A stretch of DNA of 64,000 nucleotides from a virus (IMGVR_UViG_3300011008_000071:54714-118713); one strand, 5' to 3'; numbered from the stretch's first letter, positions 8,901 through 63,523 are shown. The notes: generated from the sequence alone by a model not told the origin. Program-made: numbers and translations.

Positions 8901-11900
8901 TGATATCGTGTTCGAACTGGGTTCATACATTCAGGTATTTGACATCGAATCTTTCATGAGAGGTGTAAACAACCCTGAATTCTTCAATGATCTGGATCAT
9001 GTTGATGATTCATCCCTCATAGGAGCAATCAACACATTCAAGACAGCATGGCCTGCATCGGTACAGAAAGCACGTAATGCACTATACGTTTCAACGACAT
9101 CATTATGGGCATTCTATAATCCGGATAAGTCATACAAACAGTCTGAAGTAGAGCGCATGCTCCAGTTGGTACAGAATGTACGAGATGATATGTATGATCT
9201 TGAAACGGAAGTATACAAGTGCTGGCCAAAAGAAACGGACTATGAGCCAAACATCGTTTCCAAGATGATATTCGCCAAGGAATCGATCGACGCTTTGGTT
9301 GATTCCATGGAACACATCGTAAATCTGAGGGTTCGTCTATTCAATGTCTTTGACGACATTCGCTCCAGAATCGTTGAAGTGACGTCAATTGGAACCGATC
9401 AACAGGAAGATGATTATGCTCTCACCATCGATTCCGCCTTTGATGTGATTACGGAACATCTGTCATACATCGCAGGTGAAAACAGAAAATCCGATGCTCT
9501 CGAGGAGCATCAGAAATGTATTGCATCGATTGAAGGATGGATTACATATGTTACCAGAGCTAAGGATATTTACATGAGACTTGCTTCCGTTGTAGGAACT
9601 CCGAATGTGTTCTTAGATACACTTGCTCCGTATCATGAGTATCTTGATGCATTACTGGCATACATGCGTACGGTTGATAGGGAATTCATACCTGATACCC
9701 ATTCTCCGACATATTCTTCTGTATATCAGATTGACGAGATCCGTCTTACCAATGGCGGCTACAATCACCAAGTTGGTGATGAAGCATACTTCGAGAATCT
9801 CGGTGTATATACAATATCTGGTACAGATGGAAACATCAATGTTTGCACAGGTCTAGAAGATCCGAATCTGTATGAGATTGATCTTTCATTTGATGCTTAC
9901 ATCGACAATGCCGGGGATCTGATTCTTGAGGTTCCTAATACTCCTGTGTCCGATGCATACATCAATGCATACGGGAATCTGGTGGTAATCCTGGATGATG
10001 ATTCTACCAGCGACATTCAGAATTATCAATTCAGAGTTAACCATGATGGATACCTATACATGACCCAGGTAAACAAGACGGGAATATATCTGAACTCGAG
10101 AGAGGAACTCATCATTGAAGTTGATACAGACGTTGATTTCACATTAGTGGTCAATGAGAATGGAGAATTGATTCTAACAATGAATGAAGACGATGCACTC
10201 GATCTTGAGCTGTATCGGTTCTATGTCACATCGGATGATGATCTGATGATCCGTCGTACGGATAACGTATTCTATCGTAATACAACATTCAGAGATCCAT
10301 GCGTACAATCTAACCCATATGATTCCATTACATCTGGAAACGGTGTAGGTATTACAATTGACTCTATTTCATCTACGGAAATCAAAATCTTCAATGATTC
10401 GGTAATAACATCATACATCGACAGAGCTAAGAATCTGCTGCACATGGCTGAACGTGACATGTATTCTATTAACCCATTCAGCAATAATGGTATACACACT
10501 CTGATTGAAAAGCTGAATGTTCTTCAGTCTGATTGGAGGAAGTTCCGTTCTGTATACTCTGAGTATATTTCTCCGTCAATTGTATCTTCAATGGATACAA
10601 TGATTGAATCATTGACCAGTCTAATTGATCCTCTGAATGTTCTTGTAACTACCAGAGAGAAGAATGATCTGAAGACATTGGTTGGAACATTCACCGATTT
10701 CCTCGATACTACGAATCTGGTATTCCAAAAGAATAACATGCGTACTCCAAACTACATCTACTTCGTTAATAGAGTAAATGTTAGATATGGTGAGTTGGTG
10801 GATTATTACGGAAATGGAACCACTTGGAATGGCGCAGATGAACTCAGAGAGATACTGGATGACTGCGAGTATGAACTCAGACTTTTCAATCGAAAGATGA
10901 TATCCCTTCTTCCGAATGAGGTTGAACCTCAGGCACTATATGCGTCCGTAATGGCATTGATTGCAAACAGTCTTATCTGTCTAACGACAATACCAGAAAC
11001 ATATCAGGCAATCAACTCAGCAATTGTGAATATCAATTACTACATGAACCTGATTCCAGATCCAATCAGAGTTGATGAATGGTATCGTTTCAACAAGGTG
11101 ACGATTGCGGAAGAAGGCCGTAACTACCAGCCTGGCGACATCATTGAAATCATTCCTGCTCTTCCTAAAGATGCATATGGGAATGAAATTCATGATAACG
11201 AGGATGTTATCATGTCGGATAAGATGTTTATCAAAGTTACCAAGGTAACACCATCCGGCGGAGTAATTGAAGCAATTCCGATAATGGAATATGCAATCCC
11301 GTATCAGGCATGGGGAGTAAGAGATACAATAACCAAATCTGGAACAGGTGAATTCCTGAGGATAATGGTATACTCCTATCCAATTACTCAGAATGATTCT
11401 ACACTATTCCTGTCAGATGACTCGTATATTCCTCCTGTAAACCAATTCGATGAGAATGACTTGTTCATGTTCAAGTTTGGAAACATTCATGATCTTCCGA
11501 TTGGATATGACATATTCTTCAACGGCAAGCAGGCACAGGACGTAATCATTCGTCATGAGCATGAAAGTAATCAATATCAGGGCAGAGATGTCGATGTGAT
11601 ATACTTGAATGCAAATGAGGTAATGAGACTTGCAGATTCATCTGTATTCATGGAGAATGAAAATTACTTCGTATACAAGATTGATCAGCTGTCAATTACG
11701 GATCCTGGTGCAGGATATTACGAGGGACAGGTTATCACCATTGATACAGGTACAGTTGCCATGAAAGTTCAGGTAACTGCATTAACCGACAATCTTACCA
11801 AGGGTATCAAATCGATATCCATGGTTCAAGATTATCAACTCTTTGAAGGAGTTGATCCTACATGTGAAAGTGCTGAAGTTGTTACAGATTCGATGAATAA

Positions 11901-14900
11901 CATTGATGACGAATACAACTCTGGTTACTATGATAACATTCCTGCTGATGGAATTCTTAAGCCGGCAACGGCACCGTACAGAGCGGATGAATATCCATTT
12001 GTATCCAGACGGTTTGAGGACGTTGTATATGTAGACCGTAACTCGGTATGGATGTATTGTGACGTTCCATTCCCCGAAGGATATGACGATGTCGCCAATG
12101 GAGATCCCGATGATCACCAGTATCTGGGAATCAGAGAAGATAATTCATATTTGGAGATTTCTTCCGATGTATGGAATGGAATTGTTGAAGTCATTCCTGT
12201 AACTGATCCATTCATTCCTGATGAGGATCGTGTTCCCACAGGACAACCGACAAGAGGTGAATACCAGCACATCGATTCCGTTCGAATTCATACGCTCAAT
12301 ACACAGATGATGGATTATATCCCTGAAAGATCCTTAAACAAGATCCTGGACAATGGAATTGTCGAAGAACCTGCTGAGGGAACATTCCGTACCAGGAATG
12401 GTTATGAATACGAAGCCGTTCCTACGGTGCCAAATACTTCCGCGTTCAACAACCCGACAGTTGTGGTTGATAACGAAATCATCAAGGCAATTGATATCCG
12501 TCGAATTGCAGCATTGATACGTGGGCAGGTTTCAAGTGTTCAGAACCCGGGTCCTTACTTCAGAGACTTCACCTTCTCCAATATTCCCGAGGTCGATAAT
12601 AATGCATACTATTCAAATACAATCAATGTCGTAGGTGACAGGGTTGTTGAGACATATGCATCACTACCTCAGCATATCAATGAGTGGACGGGAGTTGCCG
12701 TAGGAAATAGTGTAATCGTGGAGCATGATGAAACGATGGCCAACCACCGCACATCATACAAGGTTCGCACATTCATCATCTCTGGATACATCGTGTATGA
12801 CAAGCCAATCATTGTTGATTATGAATGGAACTCATTCATTGTTGACTGGAATATGATTGACTACTATCCAGATATCCCAACACTGATTCAGCAGTACCCG
12901 TCTGATATATGGGATAGCGCAGAGACGTTCTTGGATGTTCAACATGCAATCACTGATGGCAAGATTGACCGTGTTCTTACACCTAAGGCACATGTCGGTA
13001 CATACATTGCGGATCTCACGGTAGATGATCTTTCCGTATATAACTTCACCTTGAAGAAATGGGAAGATCTGCACGATGATTCGAAATGGTTGCTAACGGT
13101 GAATGATATGGGGTTTGAACTGAAGTATCTGTCATCCGAAACGTGTTCGTATAACATGATGCTCTTCCTGAATAAGACAGCAAGAACCCAGATGAAGAAT
13201 GCCCAGCAAAAGAGAAATGCTGTATTCAACATCAGTGCGGAAATATTCAATGATGTGAGCACCCCTGCTAGAAATATCAGAGTTGACACAGGTAACCATC
13301 TACGTATCAGGAAGATGTTCCCATATGAGCAGAAGGAAGAGTATATACTGGATGGAGCCAGACATGAATACACCATGGAATTCACTCTTGCTCCATATCT
13401 ACATTTCAAGAATGAGATCCAAGTTGGAGACATTCTGATCTACAACATGTCTGCAGGACGCTTTGAAGATGCTCTGGACACATCGATGTTTGAAATCCAA
13501 ATCAAGGATGACAAGGCAACTTCCAGAGGATATGAAACCCAGACGAAGATCGAACAGGTGATACTTGTAGATACAGGCAATGGGTTCACGAATGGGGAAG
13601 CATGGGCATGGAATGAAGAATATGGAGTTCATGTATTCGGACATATTGAAACCGATTTCGAGAATGACGGCCATATTCTGAAATTCATCCCGGATCATAC
13701 CGTAAATGCTCCTACATCTCATATCGCCCTAGAATTTAAACTGTACCAGTTCTCCACGGTATATGATTCATCTGTAGCAACAGTACTGATCGAATTCAAT
13801 ACGGAAAGGGTACAGGTAGCAGGAGACGGTTGGTTGCACAATGTAACGAATCCATATGCCCCGATCAAGAAAGCATTCCGAGTAGTTGTACAGTACGACT
13901 ACGATGATCTTATCAAGTATCAGATCATCATTAATAAGAAGCCGGATGTATGGGGATTCATTCGTGATACTTCCGAAGTATTTCCAACCTTCTCCATTCC
14001 GAATTCTCATATCAGATACAACTGTATCTATCTGACAACAGAGATGGGACGCCTCCCTCTGATCAATCCATCTACGGGCAAACCTTCAATCAATGTAACA
14101 TATACAGATACGACTACGGAAGTGAAGTTCCTCAATATCTATCACAAATATGAAAAGATTAAGGTTCATTCCACGCCATACCCAATGAGGTCTGTATATG
14201 TACAGAGACGTATTCCAGAATCAGGTTTCATAGACCTGAAGGGAAGGATTAACAAGCCTCTCAACAAGAAGTATTTCGAGTTCTGGATGAACGGTCGTCT
14301 TCTGAATGATGAAGTAACAATCATCAGTCCGACGAAGATATTTTTACATGGACTGAAGTCTTTACGTAATTTCGAAATCATCGAAATTAACAGAGATCCC
14401 AACGAATACTTCTCCGATACATTCTTAGGCATGGAAACGGAATCCGGAATTCCTCATCCTGTATGGAACTATGACACGTATCTGGATGATGCCCTTGAAG
14501 GCAATCTTGATTACGACAACTACACTATGAAAGAACAGGCTGCATTGCTATCACCAGTATGGCCACAAGTTAATATCGATGATCCTGAGTATTCATCGTA
14601 TCCGGCAAACATGGATACTGAAGATGATATTCTCATGAGAATTGATTCCAATACAGATGCATCAGATATACTTGATATGCCATCATTCCAATTCTCTATC
14701 ATAGACGTTCCGACAATCGAGGGTGTTCCTGTATACAGCAGAGATATTACATTTGAGCACTTTGGTTTCAAACCCATAACAGATCAGATGATAATTGACA
14801 TGCTGAATGAAGAATGGAAGGATGAGATTGCTCAAGGATTGATTCCAACTCATACTATCATATCCGATGATGATTGGTACGGCATTGCGTCACAACTGTA

Positions 14901-15036
14901 TGACGAAGAAGGGAATCTGGTTCATACATTGGATGAAGCAGCATATCATGTTTCGAACAACCAGCTTCTGTCCATCAACACTTCAACCAAGATATCTCGG
15001 ATAACACAAACTTCTGTCAACTATGACCTAAGTTAA
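5959..15036 (+). CDS. giant putative virion structural protein (3025 aa; tail/baseplate-like)
   Basis: Very large and acidic. Repeated I...G..Y..G motifs (LTNGGYNHQVG, IAEEGRNYQPG, ITDPGAGYYEG), F.NG motifs and two inserted blocks of the shared GELII module. Confidence 0.65.
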   Translation: MRNNMYEGRWSPFDPIWYQQAFDKFISTADELFNQDEIIAAGYELPESDGSKSSVFHHDAVTNNSFDEIQLRETLKDIYLNSHNRLMAANHDNVHFFQYQCTMKDVKLIPNTRFCELTIPTESLITSRDKYKFQQFYRKWIPITDLLNSWDVFKFSVLLFINQKIYSEYELRMDDQETVIRFKYYDHWIDNDYTIYIYKFDTNAQCRVKVSKELILNQWNWKMPISYLPDKRILNSNKLICAFNKISDMNIRTDGITKAEVMGDNLEFLTIEDGYIDLSKCSEFNKHLMVTDNQQWIWMTIICPKFMHEFPILNPTDVIYRPYVPRYKQIKVKDNGIWKNVRTDVNSERKNVYINMYDPPANLSFYINEDDELVIEYNGNDDLEVGTDIFIDENGYVILNSNASGVDIELSKYYFKEDGNGELNVYYSWNDGWNYIIRPIVLSDAYDVQDMDVYDLINADMEQLRQLTIEAADMVETFRSFITYEYTSDDDFFTKFNALIAKFDEIHTYLNEYMTKKRMSYITEYEAVWEEFHEIAEEIISTPGTVVTRNNPEDELKTVNAYYAITRFHRQHSKYKDFWAFISPLIYIPREFADRYEISIITSRIGNVTLWEDPKKATTKLRFKRPVDTSDFWTFEYDQDDQVWRPYMLNIDHRFPDVYLLTDPNEETPTPNRVFKSFIFYSDTMNVREPSSDIVRASASWDDDMNEFEYDKAGSYRNIFMEKFYWMAVKTIYRGIMMTNYRWECIEYIQDNASYERFNALFLNTMEPYIKMGESTYLKSDDYGFLVDNRISKMNEYLKASFLGYNQTTGFEMYLNKTWKPSYYDFIVNVDDNFQGDMRLVRRPRSTFDTRRVIKTLQETQFYISGAIKVLNKNIEEIISDIKYSGLNFQIELLEELFDLTSKLQSNMDKCIEFVNNLDLDIYSIEDVNTIIRYIERHYELIEIIKDKFSGIKDLLGDPSLFDAKLTILEAISAVIRIDLYDIVFELGSYIQVFDIESFMRGVNNPEFFNDLDHVDDSSLIGAINTFKTAWPASVQKARNALYVSTTSLWAFYNPDKSYKQSEVERMLQLVQNVRDDMYDLETEVYKCWPKETDYEPNIVSKMIFAKESIDALVDSMEHIVNLRVRLFNVFDDIRSRIVEVTSIGTDQQEDDYALTIDSAFDVITEHLSYIAGENRKSDALEEHQKCIASIEGWITYVTRAKDIYMRLASVVGTPNVFLDTLAPYHEYLDALLAYMRTVDREFIPDTHSPTYSSVYQIDEIRLTNGGYNHQVGDEAYFENLGVYTISGTDGNINVCTGLEDPNLYEIDLSFDAYIDNAGDLILEVPNTPVSDAYINAYGNLVVILDDDSTSDIQNYQFRVNHDGYLYMTQVNKTGIYLNSREELIIEVDTDVDFTLVVNENGELILTMNEDDALDLELYRFYVTSDDDLMIRRTDNVFYRNTTFRDPCVQSNPYDSITSGNGVGITIDSISSTEIKIFNDSVITSYIDRAKNLLHMAERDMYSINPFSNNGIHTLIEKLNVLQSDWRKFRSVYSEYISPSIVSSMDTMIESLTSLIDPLNVLVTTREKNDLKTLVGTFTDFLDTTNLVFQKNNMRTPNYIYFVNRVNVRYGELVDYYGNGTTWNGADELREILDDCEYELRLFNRKMISLLPNEVEPQALYASVMALIANSLICLTTIPETYQAINSAIVNINYYMNLIPDPIRVDEWYRFNKVTIAEEGRNYQPGDIIEIIPALPKDAYGNEIHDNEDVIMSDKMFIKVTKVTPSGGVIEAIPIMEYAIPYQAWGVRDTITKSGTGEFLRIMVYSYPITQNDSTLFLSDDSYIPPVNQFDENDLFMFKFGNIHDLPIGYDIFFNGKQAQDVIIRHEHESNQYQGRDVDVIYLNANEVMRLADSSVFMENENYFVYKIDQLSITDPGAGYYEGQVITIDTGTVAMKVQVTALTDNLTKGIKSISMVQDYQLFEGVDPTCESAEVVTDSMNNIDDEYNSGYYDNIPADGILKPATAPYRADEYPFVSRRFEDVVYVDRNSVWMYCDVPFPEGYDDVANGDPDDHQYLGIREDNSYLEISSDVWNGIVEVIPVTDPFIPDEDRVPTGQPTRGEYQHIDSVRIHTLNTQMMDYIPERSLNKILDNGIVEEPAEGTFRTRNGYEYEAVPTVPNTSAFNNPTVVVDNEIIKAIDIRRIAALIRGQVSSVQNPGPYFRDFTFSNIPEVDNNAYYSNTINVVGDRVVETYASLPQHINEWTGVAVGNSVIVEHDETMANHRTSYKVRTFIISGYIVYDKPIIVDYEWNSFIVDWNMIDYYPDIPTLIQQYPSDIWDSAETFLDVQHAITDGKIDRVLTPKAHVGTYIADLTVDDLSVYNFTLKKWEDLHDDSKWLLTVNDMGFELKYLSSETCSYNMMLFLNKTARTQMKNAQQKRNAVFNISAEIFNDVSTPARNIRVDTGNHLRIRKMFPYEQKEEYILDGARHEYTMEFTLAPYLHFKNEIQVGDILIYNMSAGRFEDALDTSMFEIQIKDDKATSRGYETQTKIEQVILVDTGNGFTNGEAWAWNEEYGVHVFGHIETDFENDGHILKFIPDHTVNAPTSHIALEFKLYQFSTVYDSSVATVLIEFNTERVQVAGDGWLHNVTNPYAPIKKAFRVVVQYDYDDLIKYQIIINKKPDVWGFIRDTSEVFPTFSIPNSHIRYNCIYLTTEMGRLPLINPSTGKPSINVTYTDTTTEVKFLNIYHKYEKIKVHSTPYPMRSVYVQRRIPESGFIDLKGRINKPLNKKYFEFWMNGRLLNDEVTIISPTKIFLHGLKSLRNFEIIEINRDPNEYFSDTFLGMETESGIPHPVWNYDTYLDDALEGNLDYDNYTMKEQAALLSPVWPQVNIDDPEYSSYPANMDTEDDILMRIDSNTDASDILDMPSFQFSIIDVPTIEGVPVYSRDITFEHFGFKPITDQMIIDMLNEEWKDEIAQGLIPTHTIISDDDWYGIASQLYDEEGNLVHTLDEAAYHVSNNQLLSINTSTKISRITQTSVNYDLS

Positions 15037-53641: not shown

Positions 53642-54400
53642 ATGCAACTTGCAAAAGTGTCATCGACGATGTTAGCGGCATTATCTATTGCCGTGCTCAC
53701 ATCATTTGTTTGTGGGTCGACGTCGATGGCAGCAGAAACAAGTGAATCGAAAGAGGAGGATCTTGAATCCTCAATAACTGCGATCGCAGAAGAACCGAAA
53801 GAAATGAAGTTTCCTAAACAGACAGGTCCTGTGTTGGAGTTCGAACTAAATGTCACGCCCTTAAATACCTTCGACAATATTGAAGAGACACTGGTGCAAA
53901 GTTCGATGACAACAACTGAAAGTGATGAAGAAATTATGGACGAAGCAGAGGAAGATACTCAGGACGACGAGGATATAGATCCTCTATCTTACTACGCCGG
54001 ATTACCTGAACCTGATTGGTCAGTAATCCCTCTGGATCAGTCTTTGGTAGAAACTGTCTTCTATGAAGCAGCAGAAAACAAAGTTGATCCATGCGTTGTG
54101 ATTGCGCTAATGCAATCCGAATCCGGGTTCAAACTGGATGTAGTTTCAAGCGCAGGCTGTTATGGCCTGATGCAGCTTCATCCTCTATACTATCCGGAAG
54201 ACATCGTCGACCCCTATCGCAATATCCATTATGGGGTCGAAACAATAGGAAACAACCTACAGAAGACTGATGGGAATTATGTCGAGGCATTGTCAATATA
54301 CGCGAACGGACATGTCGGAACAAATTTCACATATCAGTATGATGTAATGCGTCGTGCCGAAGAGTGGCGTACAACGCTACAGGAGGCAAATATCATATAG
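53642..54400 (+). CDS. secreted lytic transglycosylase (SLT domain)
   Basis: Signal peptide, acidic linker, then ALMQSESGF, SSAGCYGLMQL, DPY.NI..G and AL..Y..G. Confidence 0.85.
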   Translation: MQLAKVSSTMLAALSIAVLTSFVCGSTSMAAETSESKEEDLESSITAIAEEPKEMKFPKQTGPVLEFELNVTPLNTFDNIEETLVQSSMTTTESDEEIMDEAEEDTQDDEDIDPLSYYAGLPEPDWSVIPLDQSLVETVFYEAAENKVDPCVVIALMQSESGFKLDVVSSAGCYGLMQLHPLYYPEDIVDPYRNIHYGVETIGNNLQKTDGNYVEALSIYANGHVGTNFTYQYDVMRRAEEWRTTLQEANII

Positions 54401-55141: not shown

Positions 55142-57367
55142 ATGGCTAATGAAGTTATATCCGTTCTAACCAGAGATCTGATCACATTAGATGATGAAAC
55201 TAATCCTGAAGGTTCGGGTATTAATACCATTTACCCTTCAACCACACTTGATCAGGTGTTTGATAATAGATCGTCTACTAATAAAACATTACGGACTATC
55301 ATTGAAGAACTCAAGGTTGATATCCTAACAGGCGGCCGAGGAAATATCAATTTTCCAGTGACATCCGTAAATGGTAAAACGGGCAATATTGAAATCAGTC
55401 CCGCAGATTTAGGCTTACAGGATCTGATCGGCAACAAGCCTGATATGGACAAACCTTTGTCTGATCCACAACGAGAAGCCGTAAGTCAAATGATCTCGTC
55501 ATACAGATATGAAGTAGATCTGTCTGATCTGTATAATCATATCAATGACATGGATAATCCACATGGAGTTACAATTGCACAGCTTGATTCCAGTGGTGCT
55601 GTAACATCGATGATCAAAGCGTTGATCCATAGTCATAGTATAGATACAGACATGAATACCCATCTCGATATCAGGAATCAGATATCGGCATTGAGTAGTC
55701 GTCTCAGTAATCTATCAACTGCTGTTGATCAGACCGTTACAACGACTTTTGATACCATTGCTAGACATGACACAGATACTGCGGCTCATATCAATCTCTT
55801 CTCCAAGAAAGAAGATGCTGATAACAAAGCATATGAAATAGGAGAAGGAAATCATAAATCATATCCATCAACCAGAGCAGTTGTCGAATATGTAACAGCC
55901 AGACTTGCTGAGTACAAGAGATCCAATCCTGATGTCCAGCAGTGGATAGATGATATCATATTCATCGATAACAGATCTGAATTGCCTATGGCCAATTACG
56001 GAGTATATCGTAAAGCATACTTCATTCGATACGGCAATGGGTCACATCCGGAGTTGGCGATATGCAGGATGAACCCAGATGGTAGAACATATGGATGGGA
56101 CATTTCAACATCCAGTACCTTCTCTAAGTTCGATCCTGTATACTTCACCGAGAACGCAGATGGTTTGAGCATCAATCTGAATACAATCACAGACCGTATC
56201 ATGCAGGAGGATTCGATACTGAATTCCATGAAATCTCAGCTATCCAATCTGATGCCAAACATAATGGGTGAGTACTACACCAAGACAGCAATCGATACAT
56301 TTCACTTCATCAGAAGTATATCAATCCTTCCTGGGACACAGGACGGAACAATTCGTTACTTTATCAATGAAGATGAAAGAACGATGAGTGACGACATTCG
56401 AGTTACGGGGTTGCAGCGTCTTGCATTCCTTGAATGGATAACCGAGGGAGAACTTGCAGATCAAGCTGTTCAATCCAGACACATCGTAGATAGAGCCATC
56501 GAACACAGACATATGGGTGACAAGGCCGTATCTTACAAAAATATGCAAGCATCTCATATGACGATGTTTGGTAATCTGGAAGACGAAACCAATCACTCTG
56601 TACAGGAGATCACAATACCTGAACTCGCCGCTACACTGAACCCATATCTGCAACTACAAATTGATGATACCCGATTCTCTGTATTGACGGATCCGGAAAT
56701 ATATTCGATCATGAATAAGGCATTCCGTAGTAGTCAGGGATGGGTTGATCCTGAGCTGTGCGTAAATGCATATGTATCCCGTGAAGGAGAACTCATAATT
56801 GAATATGATTATGATGATCCGATCATATGGATGGAACCTGATGGAACTGTATACATGATGTGGGATAACACGGCTACAGATAACGCCCTGGTACGTTTCA
56901 AGTTCAGGATTGATGGTGAGAACCTCGTGATTGATTACACTGAGCTTGATCCTACGAAGCCTGCTGAATTCAAGATTATGGACGATGAACTGATCGTCGA
57001 ATATTCCGAAATGTTCAACGCTCCTCAGATTTCTCATGATGCAGAAGGAAATATTATACTCACTTCGTATGACTCGGAAGTTGACGTTGAATTGAGTAAA
57101 TACTTCTTCATGGAGACATCTAATGGAGATCTGATCATGTTCTATGATATGCCAGACTTCTCTGATAAGGTTGCCAAGTTTGACTTCCTTGGAGAGGATC
57201 TGATTGTTACATATGATGAAGCATATGGACAGCCTGAGATCTGGCTGGATAGAACAACCGGAGATCTGATTCTGAATTCGTATGATTCGGAGAACGATGT
57301 AGAACTCTCCAGATACATCTTCAAGATTAATCTTGAAGGAGAACTCGAAGCAACTTATCTTGATTAA
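55142..57367 (+). CDS. tail fibre-like protein with C-terminal GELII repeats
   Basis: Fibre-type motifs IYPSTT..QV, VTSVNGKTG, DKPLS.PQ, H..D..NPHGVT, KE...NK and YPS..AV..YV. Confidence 0.7.
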   Translation: MANEVISVLTRDLITLDDETNPEGSGINTIYPSTTLDQVFDNRSSTNKTLRTIIEELKVDILTGGRGNINFPVTSVNGKTGNIEISPADLGLQDLIGNKPDMDKPLSDPQREAVSQMISSYRYEVDLSDLYNHINDMDNPHGVTIAQLDSSGAVTSMIKALIHSHSIDTDMNTHLDIRNQISALSSRLSNLSTAVDQTVTTTFDTIARHDTDTAAHINLFSKKEDADNKAYEIGEGNHKSYPSTRAVVEYVTARLAEYKRSNPDVQQWIDDIIFIDNRSELPMANYGVYRKAYFIRYGNGSHPELAICRMNPDGRTYGWDISTSSTFSKFDPVYFTENADGLSINLNTITDRIMQEDSILNSMKSQLSNLMPNIMGEYYTKTAIDTFHFIRSISILPGTQDGTIRYFINEDERTMSDDIRVTGLQRLAFLEWITEGELADQAVQSRHIVDRAIEHRHMGDKAVSYKNMQASHMTMFGNLEDETNHSVQEITIPELAATLNPYLQLQIDDTRFSVLTDPEIYSIMNKAFRSSQGWVDPELCVNAYVSREGELIIEYDYDDPIIWMEPDGTVYMMWDNTATDNALVRFKFRIDGENLVIDYTELDPTKPAEFKIMDDELIVEYSEMFNAPQISHDAEGNIILTSYDSEVDVELSKYFFMETSNGDLIMFYDMPDFSDKVAKFDFLGEDLIVTYDEAYGQPEIWLDRTTGDLILNSYDSENDVELSRYIFKINLEGELEATYLD

Positions 57368-57430
57368 CATAAATCACATGGGGCTTTATAAAGCCCCATG
57401 TGATTTGACTTGCTTTTAAGAGGAGGATTG

Positions 57431-59662
57431 ATGACAATGTCTTTTTATCAACTTGACAAATCAATCATATTATACAGACAACAATTCGAACGGTATGTAT
57501 TGCAGATCTTTGGAGATCATCGAATATCGAGATGCTCCATGGATCTGGAGGGACAAATGTTCCGGATAAAGTACGTACTTCGAAAGAAAGGATACACGGA
57601 AGAGGTCAAATCCCTCATAGACGAATACTGCGAAATGTCTACGGAGATGCGGAAATACTTCAGCCGGTTCGTTGTTGAACTGATTCAGAATCGGATTATC
57701 AAAGCCGATGAGATGACAGATGTCATGACATATGACGTGAAGTTCGATGCAAACTACGTATCATTTACAATGAAGGTCATATCTGAATCGGAACGGTGGC
57801 TACAATGGTTTGATGAAGCTTTTGATTCATCTGTACCGTTCAACATCTTTCCGCATGAATATTTCCGATTCAGTACCGATTCATACAACGATGGGATTGC
57901 CAAAGCATATCCAGAACTGTTCGAACAGAAACATGCTGATATTGGTGTTGGGGATGACGGGGATATCTTCTGTCATTCCTTTACATTCCAAACAACCGAA
58001 GCATGCTCCCTTAACTGCTTTGCCAAGGGTACACAGATACTGATGGCGGATGGAACATATAAGAACATCGAAGACATCAAACTCGGTGAGTATGTAATGG
58101 GCTTCGATGAAGAGGATTACGTGGATGAACCGGCATCTGATTTCTATCCAACTCGTGTGACAGGAATGTATTTGAACTACTCCCCATGCTACACCATTTC
58201 CTCCAAGGAACTTCAACATGATATTCTTGTAACACCAGAGCATCTGATATACACCGACATTGATGAATGGACCAAGGTAGAAGACTTGGATAAGACCAAG
58301 GGTATCATGATATACAATGAGAAAGGTTTCTTCGAGCAAATATACAACTATTCCGTGAAACGAAAGAATACTAATGATCAAGACGTATACGACCTGGAAA
58401 CAGAATCCCATACATTCATTGCAGCTGGACTCTGTGTTCATAACTGCACCTACTGCTATCAGTTCAATAAATCCAATATGAGGATGCAGTTTGACACAGC
58501 GAAAGAATTCATAGATCATTTATTGAATGATGATTATGGATACATCAACCGATATAACTCCCCGGCAATCATTCTGGAGTTCATAGGTGGAGAACCTCTC
58601 TTAGAGATATCTCTAACAAGAAGAATCTATGAATACTTCCTCGATAGATGTTATGAACTAAATCATCCCTGGTTTACCCTACACAGGTTATCCATCTGCA
58701 GTAATGGCATGCAATACTTCAATGAAGAAGTGCAGGAGTTCTTCAAGCTATACTCTTCACAGATATCATTCAATATATCCATTGATGGTAACAAGGAACT
58801 CCATGATACATGCCGGAAACAGCCAAATGGAGAAGGATCATATGACATCGATATTGCAGCACTAAACCATTTCAACAAGCATTTCTCCCCAGAGAGAAAT
58901 AGTAAGATGACCCTATCTCCACAGAATATTGGTTATTTGTATGATTCCGTCGTGGACTTCATCAAACATGATATGAAGGTAATCAATATCAACTGTGTGT
59001 TTGAGGAAGGATGGAAACCAGAACACGCCAAGACTGAATACTATCAACTCAAGAAGTTGGCTGATTATCTAATTGACAATGATCTTGAAAACATCTACGT
59101 GGCCATCTTTGATGAGAGACAGGAAGAACAAATGGATCCTCTCAGTGACGGCAGTTTCTGTGGCGGAGATGGAAGCATGTTGGCTGTCCGCCCAAATGGA
59201 GAATTCTATCCTTGTCTACGATATATGCCATCGTCTGTAGGAGATGATGGCCCGGATATGTGTATAGGAACGGTCAAGGATGGAATGATTGGAAGAGAGC
59301 AAGGATCAGAAGTTCTTAAAATGTTAGATAGTATTACGCGTAGAGGGCAGAATACTGATATCTGTTGGAGTTGTCCTATTGGTACTGCATGTGCTTCATG
59401 TTTGGCTTTGGGAGCTACGGTTTTTGGTACTCCAACAAAACGTACTACGTTCATATGCCTGATGGTGATTGCCGAAACGCTTGCCAATGTTTACTACTGG
59501 AATAGATTGATTATAAAACATCCTGATTTGAATATTAATGTCAGGGAGAATAATGTTCCAGATGAATGGGCAAGAATCATATTAACGGAAGAAGAACTCG
59601 CAGAGCTTCGTATCATCGAACTGGTAGCGAAGATGTCTAAAATGACGTATGAACACTTTTAA
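57431..59662 (+). CDS. radical SAM/SPASM maturase of the CXXX-repeat-target type, with N-terminal extension and intein
   Basis: TFQTTEACSLN[intein]CTYCY, EFIGGEPLLE, HPWF, SNG, SIDG.KE.HD.CR, GSYD, and SPASM CG...G..YPC.R...C.SC.....CA.C...C. Confidence 0.9.
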   Translation: MTMSFYQLDKSIILYRQQFERYVLQIFGDHRISRCSMDLEGQMFRIKYVLRKKGYTEEVKSLIDEYCEMSTEMRKYFSRFVVELIQNRIIKADEMTDVMTYDVKFDANYVSFTMKVISESERWLQWFDEAFDSSVPFNIFPHEYFRFSTDSYNDGIAKAYPELFEQKHADIGVGDDGDIFCHSFTFQTTEACSLNCFAKGTQILMADGTYKNIEDIKLGEYVMGFDEEDYVDEPASDFYPTRVTGMYLNYSPCYTISSKELQHDILVTPEHLIYTDIDEWTKVEDLDKTKGIMIYNEKGFFEQIYNYSVKRKNTNDQDVYDLETESHTFIAAGLCVHNCTYCYQFNKSNMRMQFDTAKEFIDHLLNDDYGYINRYNSPAIILEFIGGEPLLEISLTRRIYEYFLDRCYELNHPWFTLHRLSICSNGMQYFNEEVQEFFKLYSSQISFNISIDGNKELHDTCRKQPNGEGSYDIDIAALNHFNKHFSPERNSKMTLSPQNIGYLYDSVVDFIKHDMKVININCVFEEGWKPEHAKTEYYQLKKLADYLIDNDLENIYVAIFDERQEEQMDPLSDGSFCGGDGSMLAVRPNGEFYPCLRYMPSSVGDDGPDMCIGTVKDGMIGREQGSEVLKMLDSITRRGQNTDICWSCPIGTACASCLALGATVFGTPTKRTTFICLMVIAETLANVYYWNRLIIKHPDLNINVRENNVPDEWARIILTEEELAELRIIELVAKMSKMTYEHF
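58016..58444 (+). mobile_element. mini-intein (143 aa, no endonuclease)
   Basis: CFAKGTQILMADG..KNIEDI..G..V, VTPEH, VYDLET..HTFIA.G..VHN, followed by +1 Cys. Confidence 0.92.
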
Positions 59663-59746
59663 GAACAATCCATCCACCCCGGTCACCCGGGGTGGATGGA
59701 TTTCTCGGAGGTAGTCCAAATGACTAAGACAGAAATGTGATCATTA

Positions 59747-60475
59747 TTATTGACCGAGACCGTTACCTTCACCTTCGGGTTCTTCCTTGGTAAATGTTAC
59801 GGTTTCCTCAACGTCTGCAGTACCCATTGTTCCAGCTACAGTTGCCTTGTCAGCCGTATAGCCTTCAACTTCAGGAGTTGTTACGGAGTAAGCTGCGCCT
59901 TCTTCATACTCTTCGAGGTAATCATCGGGAGCAGTGAAGTCTGTATCATCTTCAGGACCTACATACTCTATTGAAAGTGTATGCTTAGCCTTGGGCTTTT
60001 CAGTCGGTTCTTCCACTGTGGGCTCTTTATCCTCTTCTTCCTTAGCGTCCTTGGTGTATGTAATAGTTACTTCCTTACCTGCAGCAGGCATCTTACCAGT
60101 GATAAGATTCTGATCAGGTGTGTATCCTACTACGGTGTAGGGCACGAATGTGTATGTAGCGCCTACAGCGTACTTCTTGGTGAAGGGTTTAAACTTCTCG
60201 AAGTCGTTATCATCCTTGGGGCCTTCGAACTTCACAGTGAGATTTGCTGTAGCAGGAAGAACTTCGATGTCATCACCAGGAGCATCTGTTGGCTCACCCT
60301 TCTCAGGAAGTCCTTCTGTAAGAACTTCTATTACCGTAGGCATTACAGCAAAGAACTCATCTTTGGTAAGACTAATGCCGAGACCGGAACGAGAAAGAAT
60401 GTGGCGAAGAGCTTCAACGATTTCTACAGCAGCAGCTTCAAGCTTACCTTCAGCTATGAGAGTTTTTACGCTCAT
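59747..60475 (-). CDS. protein with two MucBP-like domains
   Basis: Two repeats of L...(F/Y).GP.DD.DF.........GA.Y........GYT.D.....G.M......T.T(Y/F)TK; no signal peptide or LPXTG. Confidence 0.7.
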   Translation of the reverse strand: MSVKTLIAEGKLEAAAVEIVEALRHILSRSGLGISLTKDEFFAVMPTVIEVLTEGLPEKGEPTDAPGDDIEVLPATANLTVKFEGPKDDNDFEKFKPFTKKYAVGATYTFVPYTVVGYTPDQNLITGKMPAAGKEVTITYTKDAKEEEDKEPTVEEPTEKPKAKHTLSIEYVGPEDDTDFTAPDDYLEEYEEGAAYSVTTPEVEGYTADKATVAGTMGTADVEETVTFTKEEPEGEGNGLGQ

Positions 60476-60589
60476 GAAATATCATTCCTTTCAAAAAATA
60501 AATTATGTTTAATACCTCATTATCCGCTTGAGGGTTACATAATGGTGAGGTTCAACGACTAATTAACTATCTTAGCCGTATAGGAGGTA

Positions 60590-63226
60590 ATGATAATGAA
60601 TAAAGATCTTTATTCGAATACTGAATTTACGGAACTCAAAAAACGGATTAATGCAGAAATAATTCGTCGTGGTGGATATAAGTGGTATGACCCATTATCC
60701 ACACCCAAGATTGGAGAAGACAGATCGTCTCCAATGTCAATCCCTGATATAGGCAAACGAGTTCCCGTAGATGATAAAACATATACAATCAATAACCCGT
60801 CCGAGGGATCAATAGAACGGACTCGGAATATTCAATACCCGGCAAATGGCGAGAACCCTGGTGGATCCAACCCAGAGTTCATTAGCAATATTGGCTCTTC
60901 AGCTGCAGCATTAACTGTAGATGAGATCAAGAATATGATTGTCGGTCTAAGCAAGATACAGGATATCAATCTCTTTTATGGAAGGGATGAAAAGGCTGGA
61001 ATAGCTTTTAGAGATCCTCAGGCAATTGAAGATCTATTAGATACAATAGAGAATGATGTACTTAATAAACGTCATGAAGCAACATTTGAATTCCATATGA
61101 TTGATGGTAATCTTATCATTACTTCCTACAAGGACATTGATTTCAATGCTTCAATTAATGACAATGGAGAGTTGATAATCACATATACAGACGAGGAAGT
61201 TGAGAAGATAGAATCATTTGTGTTTACACAAAATGACGATGGGGAATTAATCATTACGGATAAGAATGGGCTTATGTGTTTCAGATACGATCCCAACGGA
61301 GATATCAAGGGATATCCAAATCCTGAATATCCCGTGGAGAATCCTCCTTTATATGAATTCCCCGTACAAGATGGCTATTACGTAATCCCATCTGGTGAAC
61401 GAGATGGAGAAGAAGTTGCAACATGGAATGGTCTTGGTCCGGACAATTTCTTTGATGACTATGGAGCAACACCAGGAGATGGGAATTACCATCCATACAA
61501 CCATGCTACCACACCTCAGACCAGGAGAGATTACTATATATATGACACATCTCGGAAAGGTAAGAAGATAATCGTAATCCAAGGTGGGATCAAAGCATCA
61601 TCGTATGGGCAGAACCCTCGTAATCCTAACCCAGGTAATGAATACAAACCAATGCCTATGTTCAGTGGTGTTCTTGGAACATGTAACAATGCATGCACAG
61701 GATTATGTCATGAGACATGCGATTCTCAATGTTCCGAATCATGTTCGGCAACATGCTTCTCCAGATGCGGAAATGCATGCACGGCCTCGTGTGGTAATGT
61801 ATGTACCGGATGTAGTACGATGTGTCACGCTTCCTGTCAAACGAAGTGTGAGAATGCCACGGGATATGCATGTGTCAAGTCTGGAGCAAAGACCGTAAAG
61901 ATCTATACCACAGGTGGAGCAGATGGTGTCCCTGCAAAAAATCATCTTGAGTACACAACACATACCTGTCAAGGATGTTCCTATTCATGTCAGTTCTACC
62001 CCAATAAGAAGACAGATTGTTGGGATGCCGGATGTATGGGTAAATGCTTCACATCATGTGATACAGCATGTTCTACATCTTGTCTTGGTGGATGTATTAA
62101 TAATGATGCACGGAACGGAAAGGGACAAGGCTGTTCCGCAGGCTGCACAATCAACTGCTCTGGAGTGTGCCAAGGAACATGTGAAGGACTATGTACGGAA
62201 ACATGTTTCCATCAGTGCAAAGAACTGTGTTCTGATACTTGTGAATGGACATGCGAGACGGCATGTGGTGCAGGATGCGATACAGGATGTACCAACGGTT
62301 GTACCGGTTGTGACGGTACCTGTGAATCATACTGCACAGGAGATTCCGACATGTATGGCTGTACAGGATGCAGCACCAAAGGTGGATGTACATCAGTATG
62401 TCAATTCGACTGTAACAGCAATTGCATCAATAAGGGATGTAAATCAATGTGTGGCATAGACAGTGCTGGAGCATGTTCAAATAACTGCCGTATCTCATGT
62501 TCATCTTCGTCATGTACTTCCCAGTGTTCCAACCAGTGTACAGACGAATGTACTACATGTGTGAACACTTGCGGTTGGGGTTGCGGGGCATGTAGTTCCG
62601 CCTGCAGTAATGGGTGTGAATCGACATGCAATATTACATGCACCGCTACATGCGAGAATTCATGCAATACGAATTGTGTTCAATCATGCTCTGAAGAATG
62701 CGCCGGATGTTCGAATTTATGCTACTCGTGTGTGGGAATGTGCATTGGGGTATGTTCGGTGAAGTGTTCCGGTAACTGTTCATCATGTACAAATCAGTGT
62801 AGTTGGTGGTGCGATACACAGTGTAATCAGGCTTGTTTCTCCAACTGTGATGATCAATGCCTAACATCTTGCAATGGAACGTGTGCAACATTCGCAGATA
62901 TGGATGCAAATCTTCCTGGACCGGAAAGAGGACCTACTTCCCCTGGTTATGCGAACCCGAATATTACAAACCGTATCGAAGAACAAGAATCATTCCGCCT
63001 CATCAGAACCTTATACAGTTCCGAAACATTCAATGTATATCTTACCGAAGATAAGGAGCTATATGTGGAATATGATGAAGAGGAAGACTTTGTCATTGAC
63101 TTAGTAATCGATGATGACGGAAACTTAGTCCTTAATTCGAATAACACACCATTCGACATTACACTCAAGAAATTACATTTCGAAGTGAAAAATGGCGAAC
63201 TAACAATGACAATACAAGAGGGATGA
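60590..63226 (+). CDS. CXXX-repeat Cys-rich protein, probable radical SAM substrate and virion component
   Basis: About 88 Cys (hand count) in CXXX/CXX spacing at 61682-62884; two copies of the GELII module; AGGAGG RBS. Confidence 0.8.
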   Translation: MIMNKDLYSNTEFTELKKRINAEIIRRGGYKWYDPLSTPKIGEDRSSPMSIPDIGKRVPVDDKTYTINNPSEGSIERTRNIQYPANGENPGGSNPEFISNIGSSAAALTVDEIKNMIVGLSKIQDINLFYGRDEKAGIAFRDPQAIEDLLDTIENDVLNKRHEATFEFHMIDGNLIITSYKDIDFNASINDNGELIITYTDEEVEKIESFVFTQNDDGELIITDKNGLMCFRYDPNGDIKGYPNPEYPVENPPLYEFPVQDGYYVIPSGERDGEEVATWNGLGPDNFFDDYGATPGDGNYHPYNHATTPQTRRDYYIYDTSRKGKKIIVIQGGIKASSYGQNPRNPNPGNEYKPMPMFSGVLGTCNNACTGLCHETCDSQCSESCSATCFSRCGNACTASCGNVCTGCSTMCHASCQTKCENATGYACVKSGAKTVKIYTTGGADGVPAKNHLEYTTHTCQGCSYSCQFYPNKKTDCWDAGCMGKCFTSCDTACSTSCLGGCINNDARNGKGQGCSAGCTINCSGVCQGTCEGLCTETCFHQCKELCSDTCEWTCETACGAGCDTGCTNGCTGCDGTCESYCTGDSDMYGCTGCSTKGGCTSVCQFDCNSNCINKGCKSMCGIDSAGACSNNCRISCSSSSCTSQCSNQCTDECTTCVNTCGWGCGACSSACSNGCESTCNITCTATCENSCNTNCVQSCSEECAGCSNLCYSCVGMCIGVCSVKCSGNCSSCTNQCSWWCDTQCNQACFSNCDDQCLTSCNGTCATFADMDANLPGPERGPTSPGYANPNITNRIEEQESFRLIRTLYSSETFNVYLTEDKELYVEYDEEEDFVIDLVIDDDGNLVLNSNNTPFDITLKKLHFEVKNGELTMTIQEG

Positions 63227-63486
63227 ATAGTATGATTTGTAAGATCATATATGGAGCATTCCCAGAAAATTATACCGATATGGACATTAGCAAGAATAAT
63301 GCATTACGGGAACTTCTGGGGATGAATGATGAGCTGGACAACGAGTTCAAACGGCAGGAACTCCATACTATGGAAGCAAAAAATAAAGCTCTTTCATCGA
63401 TAGGAAATTCTGTGGATGTAAACAGCATCTCGTTTGGTTCAAGTGCATTTTCAGACAAAATAATATTTACAGTAGAAACATTATGA
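63223..63486 (+). CDS. small hypothetical protein coupled to the Cys-rich gene
   Basis: ATGA overlap. Confidence 0.55.
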   Translation: MNSMICKIIYGAFPENYTDMDISKNNALRELLGMNDELDNEFKRQELHTMEAKNKALSSIGNSVDVNSISFGSSAFSDKIIFTVETL

Positions 63487-63523
63487 GTATGGAGTCCCGG
63501 AACATTCCGGGACTCCTATCTTC

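Follow-up and report, generated by a model that had tools for sequence, protein, structure and literature searches.

A putative radical SAM maturation cassette with a cysteine-ladder substrate among tail genes of a jumbo phage

Thioethers installed by radical S-adenosylmethionine (SAM) enzymes are known mainly from small secreted peptides, namely those made by the ribosome and modified after translation (RiPPs). PapB is reported to form Cys-Asp/Glu thioethers in a repeated CX3D motif (PMC9413430, PMC10739248). A full-size Cys-rich protein carrying radical SAM thioethers was first demonstrated in 2026; it comes from an archaeon, in which the radical SAM/SPASM enzyme CrpC introduces ranthionine links in C-x-x-acceptor motifs of a 28.8-kDa Cys-rich protein (PMC13692751). 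For the bacterial CXXX-repeat family we found no published biochemistry in the literature. Here we analyse a 64,000-nucleotide stretch of viral DNA (IMGVR_UViG_3300011008_000071:54714-118713; the window), in which positions 55142-63486 encode a radical SAM/SPASM enzyme, P0002, and a protein with a ladder of cysteines, P0004. The explanation we favour, with moderate confidence, is that the two belong to a phage protein-maturation cassette in a tail or fibre module, whose enzyme would cross-link a fibre-like particle protein, and that the DNA stems from a jumbo phage of about 270-290 kb whose habitat is anaerobic, either gut or rumen.

The window makes up the terminal 64 kb of an IMG/VR virus contig of 118.7 kb with a CheckV completeness of 44%. 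The cassette region lies 0.5-9 kb from the contig end, and the contig stops 514 bases past the last gene considered here. As an earlier reading of this DNA (the original prediction) had listed, five open reading frames (ORFs) are present: the tail-fibre-like P0001, the enzyme P0002, the MucBP protein P0006, the Cys-ladder protein P0004 and the small coupled ORF P0005. Closely related complete genomes measure 270-292 kb, with terminal repeats in one of them, and we thus consider the source a jumbo phage whose host is uncultured. Metagenome-assembled genomes (MAGs) labelled Lachnospiraceae or Ruminococcus contain some of the homologues.

P0004 (plus strand, 60596-63226, in an ORF of 878 residues open from 60590) has its likely start at 60596. 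Of its 89 cysteines, 88 fall within residues 365-765 with 87 gaps between them, 68 of size 4, nine of 3 and three of 5, a regularity far above chance; the CXXX periodicity over some 88 Cys that had been claimed for this protein is thus borne out by the count. No periodicity beyond 4 was found in the tract, save a weak signal at 8, and the positions between the cysteines are filled largely by Ser, Thr, Gly, Asn and Ala, whereas Asp and Glu are scarce. The tract is preceded by a strongly conserved N-terminal region (~1-165) with the motif EFTxLKxRINxEIxRR, by a window-specific 'GELIIxY' module (~165-235) and by a conserved Pro/Gly/Tyr-rich linker (~250-360). It holds a conserved non-repeat island at ~421-477 and is followed by a conserved GPER...RESF segment and by a variable C-terminal module (~800-878), a domain that differs or is missing in orthologues. 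A conserved N-terminus combined with variable C-termini among orthologues is the usual fibre pattern and, as judged from sequence, the layout of conserved N-terminus, uniform shaft and variable tip is that of a fibre.

In an alignment of 36 sequences with ~55% identity almost all Cys columns of P0004 either show no variation or are conserved to 90% or more, and the number of cysteines stays between 86 and 90 in orthologues that are only ~55% identical. In every lineage a conserved N-terminal region comes before the Cys tract, and the CXXX proteins of all phage lineages share an N-terminal motif, an aromatic or aliphatic residue followed by xxLKxxIxxExxRR. No signal peptide, hydrophobic or membrane segment is visible in the P0004 sequence. 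The Pfam family PF27846 (PF27846.1) is precomputed on all 121 length-matched P0004 homologues among the matches listed, including P0127, which is identical to P0004 from Met3; our own Pfam scan of P0004 gave no match. P0004 matches phrog_6085 weakly, no NCBIfam model even at E<=10 and no structural family; the cut-offs of the CXXX target families TIGR04117 and TIGR04118 (50 and 35 bits) are not reached, and other phage CXXX proteins score only 14-15 bits against these two. A fold search started from a model of P0004 returned nothing except generic helices (Z<=5.6) and is meaningless. A homologue from a bacterial genome (a Bacillota MAG; L136, 10008-12761) is a 917-residue CXXX protein with 93 Cys that carries endolysin-type cell-wall-binding repeats (PHROG E 1e-31), which we count towards the tail context discussed below.

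P0002 (plus strand, 57431-59662, in an ORF open from 57410) likely starts at the ATG at 57431 or 57437, preceded by an AGGAGG site. The enzyme family named in the original prediction is also the one that comes out on top in a search with hidden Markov models (HMMs): TIGR04115, the family of radical SAM peptide maturases with CXXX-repeat targets, ranks first among the NCBIfam models (E 5.9e-100), with 335.2 bits, or 338.1 in the genome search, against a cut-off of 350. This match spans profile positions 2-359 and loses almost nothing of its score to the intein described below. Orthologues without intein score 338, 343, 360 and 364 bits, such that the clade straddles the cut-off, and some orthologues bear the TIGR04115 family name in NCBI and JGI records. 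The PapB ranthipeptide maturases come second (NF047865, E 3.3e-40), with 138.3 bits against a cut-off of 340, which makes P0002 a relative of that family and not a member. The anSME, sactisynthase and cyclophane synthase families match at E 1e-8 to 1e-21 with at most 83 bits, and phrog_1802 at E 1e-42. At E<=1e-20 we counted 2645 homologues of P0002, many of them from contigs of 250-300 kb.

The cysteines expected of such an enzyme are in place. In the SPASM part, C584, C602, C618, C652, C655, C661, C664 and C683 either never vary or are conserved to 90% or more, and their pattern (CX12GX4C formed by C584 and C602, then C618, C652-x2-C655-x5-C661-x2-C664 and C683) fits two auxiliary clusters; the score against the SPASM model TIGR04085 is borderline (26.4 bits, cut-off 27). 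The CX3CX2C motif of the catalytic iron-sulfur cluster is present as well, as C199-S-L-N, an intein, and C346-T-Y-C349. This 143-residue mini-intein (plus strand, 58016-58444, residues 203-345), which has no endonuclease domain, splits the motif between its first and second Cys, with the junctions CSLN | C-F-A-K-G-T and V-H-N | C-T-Y-C. Pfam detects it with PF14890 (E 1.6e-5) and, at 42.3 bits against a cut-off of 32.1, with PF05203 Hom_end_hint (E 1.1e-10), and its blocks are complete, from Cys1 C203 over a TPEH block to the terminal V-H-N345 and Cys+1 C346. Excision of the segment recovers the sequence of orthologues, which, where they lack the intein, read contiguous CSLNCTYC. Since the intein blocks are intact, we infer that the intein splices and joins CSLN to CTYC, without which the motif would not be functional.

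Among the 120 closest clusters of P0002 homologues CX3CX2C is unbroken in 63, interrupted by an intein before the second Cys in 27 and before the third Cys in 17. Hence, the enzyme family has two alternative intein sites, three residues apart and both within the motif. Speculatively, an intein with Cys1 and Cys+1 as its splice nucleophiles could make activation of the enzyme depend on the redox state or on how far infection has progressed. There are longer forms as well: some P0002 homologues, with lengths up to 1288 residues, contain LAGLIDADG endonuclease domains or a second intein, and the substrate gene is invaded too, with Cys-ladder orthologues of ~1200-1280 residues for which Hint, intein and LAGLIDADG Pfam domains are precomputed.

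Ahead of the radical SAM part, P0002 carries an N-terminal domain of ~145 residues (plus strand, 57431-57865; beta-alpha-alpha-alpha-beta-beta-alpha), which is kept in all 24 aligned homologues and is specific to the jumbo-phage clade. AlphaFold2 models it with a predicted score in the local distance difference test (pLDDT) of 84-96 across residues 1-145. The fold search gave nothing significant in the PDB (Foldseek best E 0.08), VIA-align found only generic helical hairpins (Z<=8.1), Pfam and NCBIfam contain no match, and the ESM Atlas returned unnamed clusters only. For a PqqD-like RiPP recognition element (RRE), with its winged-helix fold, the model is confident, yet the Foldseek E of 0.08, the Z of at most 8.1 and the missing HMM match do not identify one. 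Possibly the domain has a role in docking of the substrate. Its order of secondary structure elements (beta, helices, beta-beta) is similar to that of the helper protein introduced below; that it is a fused copy of the helper is unsupported by sequence (hhalign probability 1%).

The central observation is that enzyme and Cys-rich protein go together. We compared 81 phage loci, 80 from a profile scan of IMG/VR (contigs of ~5-292 kb) and one from the GenBank record of a fecal phage; many are near-duplicates, and together they span enzyme identities of 40%-67% and at least three gene orders. In 75 of the 81, the 10 kb around the enzyme gene include a CXXX-rich ORF of 130-1072 residues with 11-105 Cys, which in almost all cases shares its strand and is no more than ~2 kb away; P0004 begins 0.9 kb downstream of the P0002 gene. 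One of the six remaining loci is a 4.7-kb fragment and five are from the jumbo clade. Three of the latter were checked in their genomes (G001-G003) and encode a P0004 orthologue 45-90 kb from the enzyme gene; the radical SAM matches of the other two (L005, L011) resemble those of L006 and L009, so that these are apparently the same two phages. The synteny check proposed along with the original prediction thus yields the pair in 75 of 81 loci and, unlinked, in three further genomes. Altogether, the pairing is robust, and the association is conserved.

The comparison also changes how the size of the substrate is to be seen. Bacterial homologues with enzyme identities of ~39% or more accompany large CXXX proteins (162-917 residues), more distant ones mostly short CXXX ORFs of 47-156 residues, with two of up to 242, and this short form is what the curated families TIGR04117 and TIGR04118 describe (profiles of 98 and 46 residues). 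The cassette also occurs in genomes of cultured strains, for example at the loci of Neglectibacter timonensis (L090) and Desnuesiella massiliensis (L089). A large substrate is the rule in phages and not a peculiarity of the P0004 locus. The earlier statement that the substrate is about ten times larger than normal therefore applies in relation to the bacterial peptide targets and not within phages, where 130-1072 residues are usual. For the same reason the proposal of a RiPP-type system 'repurposed' by the phage is not upheld, as no direction of such a change is demonstrated. Two phage contigs of 128 and 141 kb deserve separate mention: there, five or six consecutive CXXX genes for proteins of 77-968 residues, with up to 104 Cys each, lie upstream of a single enzyme gene (L018, 3549-9213; L020, 2861-9238).

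The cassette is found among tail genes, in the phage loci usually following them. Upstream of it in the window, PHROG identifies a virion structural protein and a transglycosylase-type tail lysin, the latter being a probable tail-associated lysin of 252 residues (plus strand, 53642-54400) with a transglycosylase/lytic tail protein domain (E 1e-7 to 1e-12). The gene adjoining the enzyme gene on this side, P0001 (plus strand, 55142-57367, 741 residues), has weak PHROG matches to tail proteins, and its N-terminal 530 residues recur in related jumbo-phage loci, in the gene that immediately precedes the enzyme gene (L004, L007, L012, L014, L015, L017 and L025; E 1e-32 to 1e-143), in keeping with the tail-fibre-like gene that had been proposed at this position. 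In two other loci (L045, L073) the cassette directly follows genes for tail protein, tail fibre, minor tail and virion structural proteins, and in L002 a tail protein gene lies downstream of it. The placement of the cassette among tail genes, as first suggested for the window, thus recurs in P0001-like genes of the jumbo clade and in the genes around these three loci. On the 95-kb phage contig of L045 a tubulin/FtsZ-like gene (11883-12935; TIGR00065, E 4e-7) is also present, ~0.65 kb downstream of the cassette.

A distantly related cassette occurs in Salmonella phage SPN3US, after gp168 and gp167. Of these, gp168 is a proven tail protein and gp167 a virion protein (PMC5105663). The SPN3US sequence (L154, JN641803.1) contains two unannotated CXXX ORFs, at 2133-2531 and 2545-2946, of 133 and 134 residues with 21 and 20 Cys; the annotated gp166 is an Ala/Val-rich reading in another frame over the second of them. 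Because these ORFs are unannotated, the published SPN3US proteomes could not have detected the CXXX proteins. On the basis of gene context, domain layout and modules shared with neighbouring proteins, P0004 is probably part of the virion.

These shared modules are the 'GELIIxY' beta-repeats, which make up the C-terminal ~200 residues of P0001. P0004 has two copies, the insertion at 165-235 and the C-terminal domain, neither of them found in its orthologues, and its C-terminus matches that of P0001 at E 1e-9. The module recurs in a giant ORF of 3025 residues (plus strand, 5959-15036), at ~380-460 and ~1335-1460, where phmmer relates it to the C-termini of P0001 (E 1.8e-10) and P0004 (E 3.4e-9); the 3025-residue protein is possibly a docking partner or a fellow appendage protein. 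The original prediction had described P0004 as carrying two copies of a module otherwise confined to virion proteins of the window. The sharing itself is real, whereas the virion label leans on the weak matches of P0001 and, for the 3025-residue protein, on none.

Around the two principal genes, the remaining features differ in how closely they belong to the cassette. A terminator-like hairpin with a 17-bp stem (plus strand, 57370-57407) separates P0001 from the enzyme gene. P0006 (minus strand, 59747-60475, 242 residues) contains two MucBP/Muc_B2-like repeats (PF17966, 27.2 bits, cut-off 23.5; PF06458, 25.3 bits, cut-off 23), and L007 is the sole related locus in which we found an orthologue, located at the equivalent position. 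The MucBP protein placed in the gene order by the original prediction is therefore real, but it is encoded on the minus strand, is shared with a single related locus and does not belong to the system: we regard P0006 as an optional insertion that separates the enzyme gene from the substrate gene without being part of the cassette, and it may be a moron of a gut phage for adhesion to mucus or glycans. The plus-strand ORF opposite to it (59981-60562) looks like junk.

Downstream, P0005 (plus strand, 63223-63486, 87 residues) shares an ATGA overlap with the stop codon of P0004 and is preceded by the ribosome-binding site GAGGG, as expected of the small coupled ORF that had been reported, and a terminator-like hairpin (plus strand, 63491-63516; 11-bp stem with 8 G-C pairs) closes the P0004-P0005 unit. 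ORFs of 83-97 residues resembling P0005 follow the Cys gene in seven jumbo loci including the window, and the six others align with it; by phmmer P0005 matches only the ORF of L013 (E 6e-7), and in Pfam, NCBIfam and PHROG it has no match. A further small protein, the helper, is encoded in small phages by a conserved ORF of 90-118 residues that immediately precedes the enzyme gene. A homologue exists in the jumbo clade (hhalign 90.6%, E 1.3e-6 against the small-phage helper), located on the opposite strand beyond the gene for the Cys protein, at a distance of ~1.2 kb in L003 and L004 and of up to ~3 kb elsewhere, and present in all three complete jumbo genomes searched as well as in a fourth genome that is 66% complete. 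P0005 was considered as a paralogue of the helper and rejected (hhalign probability 2%). In one complete relative of 289 kb (G002:C1:106550-106828) the helper homologue lies inside an open frame of 454 residues, which suggests a fusion with another domain.

We thus propose a mechanism in which the enzyme would be made as a precursor, and splicing of the intein would restore CX3CX2C to give an active radical SAM/SPASM enzyme. The enzyme would then recognise the Cys-ladder protein, probably via the conserved, leader-like N-terminal region, aided by the ~100-residue helper and perhaps by P0005 and its own N-terminal domain; the conserved association of the genes establishes the partnership itself, the contacts being our proposal. 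Moving along the 400-residue CXXX tract, it may convert many of the 88 Cys to intramolecular ranthionine-type thioethers with a carbon of a residue 2-4 positions away as acceptor, which would result in a chain of small rings. The thioether chemistry is proposed by analogy, because PapB and CrpC are the nearest characterised relatives of the system. The product would be a stiff shaft, resistant to reduction and proteolysis, that is anchored by its N-terminus, displays the variable C-terminal domain and forms part of a tail fibre or another virion appendage. A more far-reaching version, which we advance only tentatively and regard as doubtful in its full extent, is that the ladder of ~88 Cys becomes one continuous run of thioether rings in the tail appendage, in which case the 86-90 Cys would fix the length of the shaft.

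Several findings weigh against the proposal of a cross-linked fibre protein. The score of P0002 remains below the TIGR04115 cut-off, and Asp and Glu are so scarce between the P0004 cysteines that the PapB-type acceptor is mostly missing. The AlphaFold2 model of P0004 (36 sequences) is unusable, with a mean pLDDT of 44 and ~25 in the tract. Enzyme and substrate genes do not make up one operon in this phage, where an antisense gene lies between them, and in some relatives they are tens of kb apart. The PHROG matches of P0001 to minor tail and tail fibre proteins are weak and cover short stretches (phrog_23595, E 4.8e-5; phrog_8147, E 1.7e-4), and the 3025-residue ORF has no PHROG match at all. 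The profile that finds the helper in G001-G004 does not find it on this contig, most likely because only 0.8 kb of contig remain after P0004, and the helper gene probably lies beyond the end. Finally, literature searches with the CXXX-repeat family names and with phage, radical SAM and cysteine-rich in combination retrieved nothing relevant.

The same scarcity of acidic acceptors would suit a ladder whose thiols stay free and bind Zn, Fe, Cu or iron-sulfur clusters, in the manner of a metallothionein or a cluster carrier, while the enzyme acts at few sites or elsewhere. Regularly spaced Cys flanked by small residues are typical of metal-binding proteins, and the authors of the CrpA study weigh metal binding as its biological role (PMC13692751). 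We nevertheless regard this explanation as unlikely: the strict link to a PapB-like maturase and a helper over dozens of phage lineages would be hard to explain, and a position in the tail module together with variable C-terminal domains is unlike a metal store. If, on the other hand, the enzyme does act on the ladder, its chemistry might be of another kind, such as anSME-like formation of formylglycine or dehydroalanine, sactionines (S to C-alpha), C-C bonds or intermolecular links. SPASM relatives with such activities match P0002 at E 1e-8 to 1e-21, no acceptor residue can be named from the tract, and intermolecular staples would suit a trimeric fibre. The PapB family is, however, the clear second match, with 138 bits against at most 83 for the others, and the sole Cys-rich protein substrate studied so far receives intramolecular ranthionines, which leaves a different chemistry rather improbable next to the thioether rings that we propose.

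The destination of the product may be questioned independently of its chemistry. P0004 could give rise to a RiPP-like protein or a processed peptide that is released at lysis or stays intracellular, with competing bacteria or phages as possible targets or host manipulation as a possible role, its gene being a moron in the late region. Indeed, the enzyme family was defined on bacterial peptide systems (TIGR04117/04118, with short CXXX ORFs), N-terminal regions of the P0004 type resemble a RiPP leader, and the substrate gene is far from the enzyme gene in some jumbo relatives. Against such a product stand the large multi-domain, fibre-like proteins embedded between tail genes in unrelated phages, and the fact that all complete jumbo genomes checked have kept the Cys-ladder protein, whereas the MucBP gene shows how a typical moron comes and goes. 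The upstream genes checked, which are structural, tail-lysin or without match and were not scanned systematically, revealed neither a protease nor an exporter; the original prediction had stated that neither is nearby, and this agrees with those upstream genes, while the downstream side is not assessable, as the contig ends 514 bases after P0005. We therefore assign a low probability to a non-virion product. That enzyme and Cys-rich protein are neighbours merely by chance or shared descent is the least credible explanation, and we deem it highly improbable. Many of the 81 loci are closely related, such that far fewer lineages are independent, and the two genes are not co-transcribed in this phage; yet the association extends from 30-kb to 290-kb phages, to enzyme identities of ~40% and over differing gene orders, and it is seen in bacteria with short peptides and even where the genes are unlinked. 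A cassette that staples a virion protein remains the explanation we prefer.

If this explanation is true, P0004 would be the first structural protein of a virus with a radical SAM post-translational modification, and the cassette would define a new class of virion post-translational modification. With a continuous run of rings along the ladder, no other ribosomal polypeptide known to us would be as densely cross-linked. The finding would also account for a set of genes that is common in phages of gut and rumen but lacks annotation, with thousands of enzyme homologues, and would point to a natural, genetically encoded route to very long, reduction-proof and protease-resistant polypeptide rods. 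The cassette could further mark phages of strict anaerobes, and the intein sites within CX3CX2C might offer a clean system for the conditional activation of radical SAM enzymes.

In comparison with known systems, the bacterial CXXX-repeat system (maturase TIGR04115; targets TIGR04117, 'Syntroph_Cxxx', and TIGR04118, 'AC3_0185 family rSAM-modified Cys-rich RiPP') is among the closest, sharing the enzyme family by best HMM match, a Cys at every fourth residue and a leader-like N-terminus before the repeat; PF27846, listed with this system, is precomputed on P0004 homologues. Its curated targets are peptides (profiles of 46 and 98 residues), whereas P0004 is an 878-residue, multi-domain protein in a phage tail module, and the phage cassette has in addition a separate helper, a coupled small protein, the enzyme N-domain and the intein. 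PapB and its substrate PapA, which give the ranthipeptide freyrasin in Paenibacillus polymyxa, are a radical SAM/SPASM system in which a recurring Cys motif likewise receives several small thioether rings; the acceptors in PapA, a short RiPP that is secreted, are Asp/Glu, while in P0004 position i+4 holds another Cys and acidic residues are rare. The likeness extends to CrpC/CrpA of Methanococcus voltae (TIGR04463), where a full-size Cys-rich protein with leader-like N-terminus and repetitive Cys-rich C-terminal region is modified, a paralogous accessory protein improves the modification and AlphaFold fails on the repeat too (PMC13692751). CrpA has a 17-residue repeat instead of CXXX and is an archaeal, cellular protein linked to growth on pyrite, with no virus connection (PMC13692751). 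CrpC belongs to another radical SAM subfamily, TIGR04463 matching P0002 only at E 1.7e-10.

A further system is that of QhpD, a radical SAM/SPASM enzyme that makes intramolecular Cys-to-Asp/Glu thioethers in the gamma-subunit of quinohemoprotein amine dehydrogenase, QhpC. This target is a structural subunit of a protein complex and not a natural product, with three or four links in ~80 residues; the QhpD family TIGR03906 is a distant match to P0002 (E 2.5e-17). Inteins, too, are known in radical SAM proteins: NF038136 (Rv2578c family) is intein-interrupted, and its Hint N-terminal block matches P0002 at E 2.5e-8, but this is an unrelated radical SAM family, and in the P0002 family the intein sits inside CX3CX2C itself. 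Phages reinforce their particles by the isopeptide 'chainmail' of the HK97 capsid and by disulfides or metal (HxH-iron) in tail fibres. The presumed purpose, stiffening of the virion, is the same; those links are autocatalytic or spontaneous, whereas the phage Cys ladder would depend on a radical enzyme of its own, on a helper and on a cytoplasm that is anaerobic. In the literature searched we found neither a description of a radical SAM-modified virion protein nor a paper on a phage tail-module version with very large substrates. Set against all these systems, the window is particular in combining a substrate of the largest class, an intein in the cluster motif, an extra enzyme domain and a shared beta-module.

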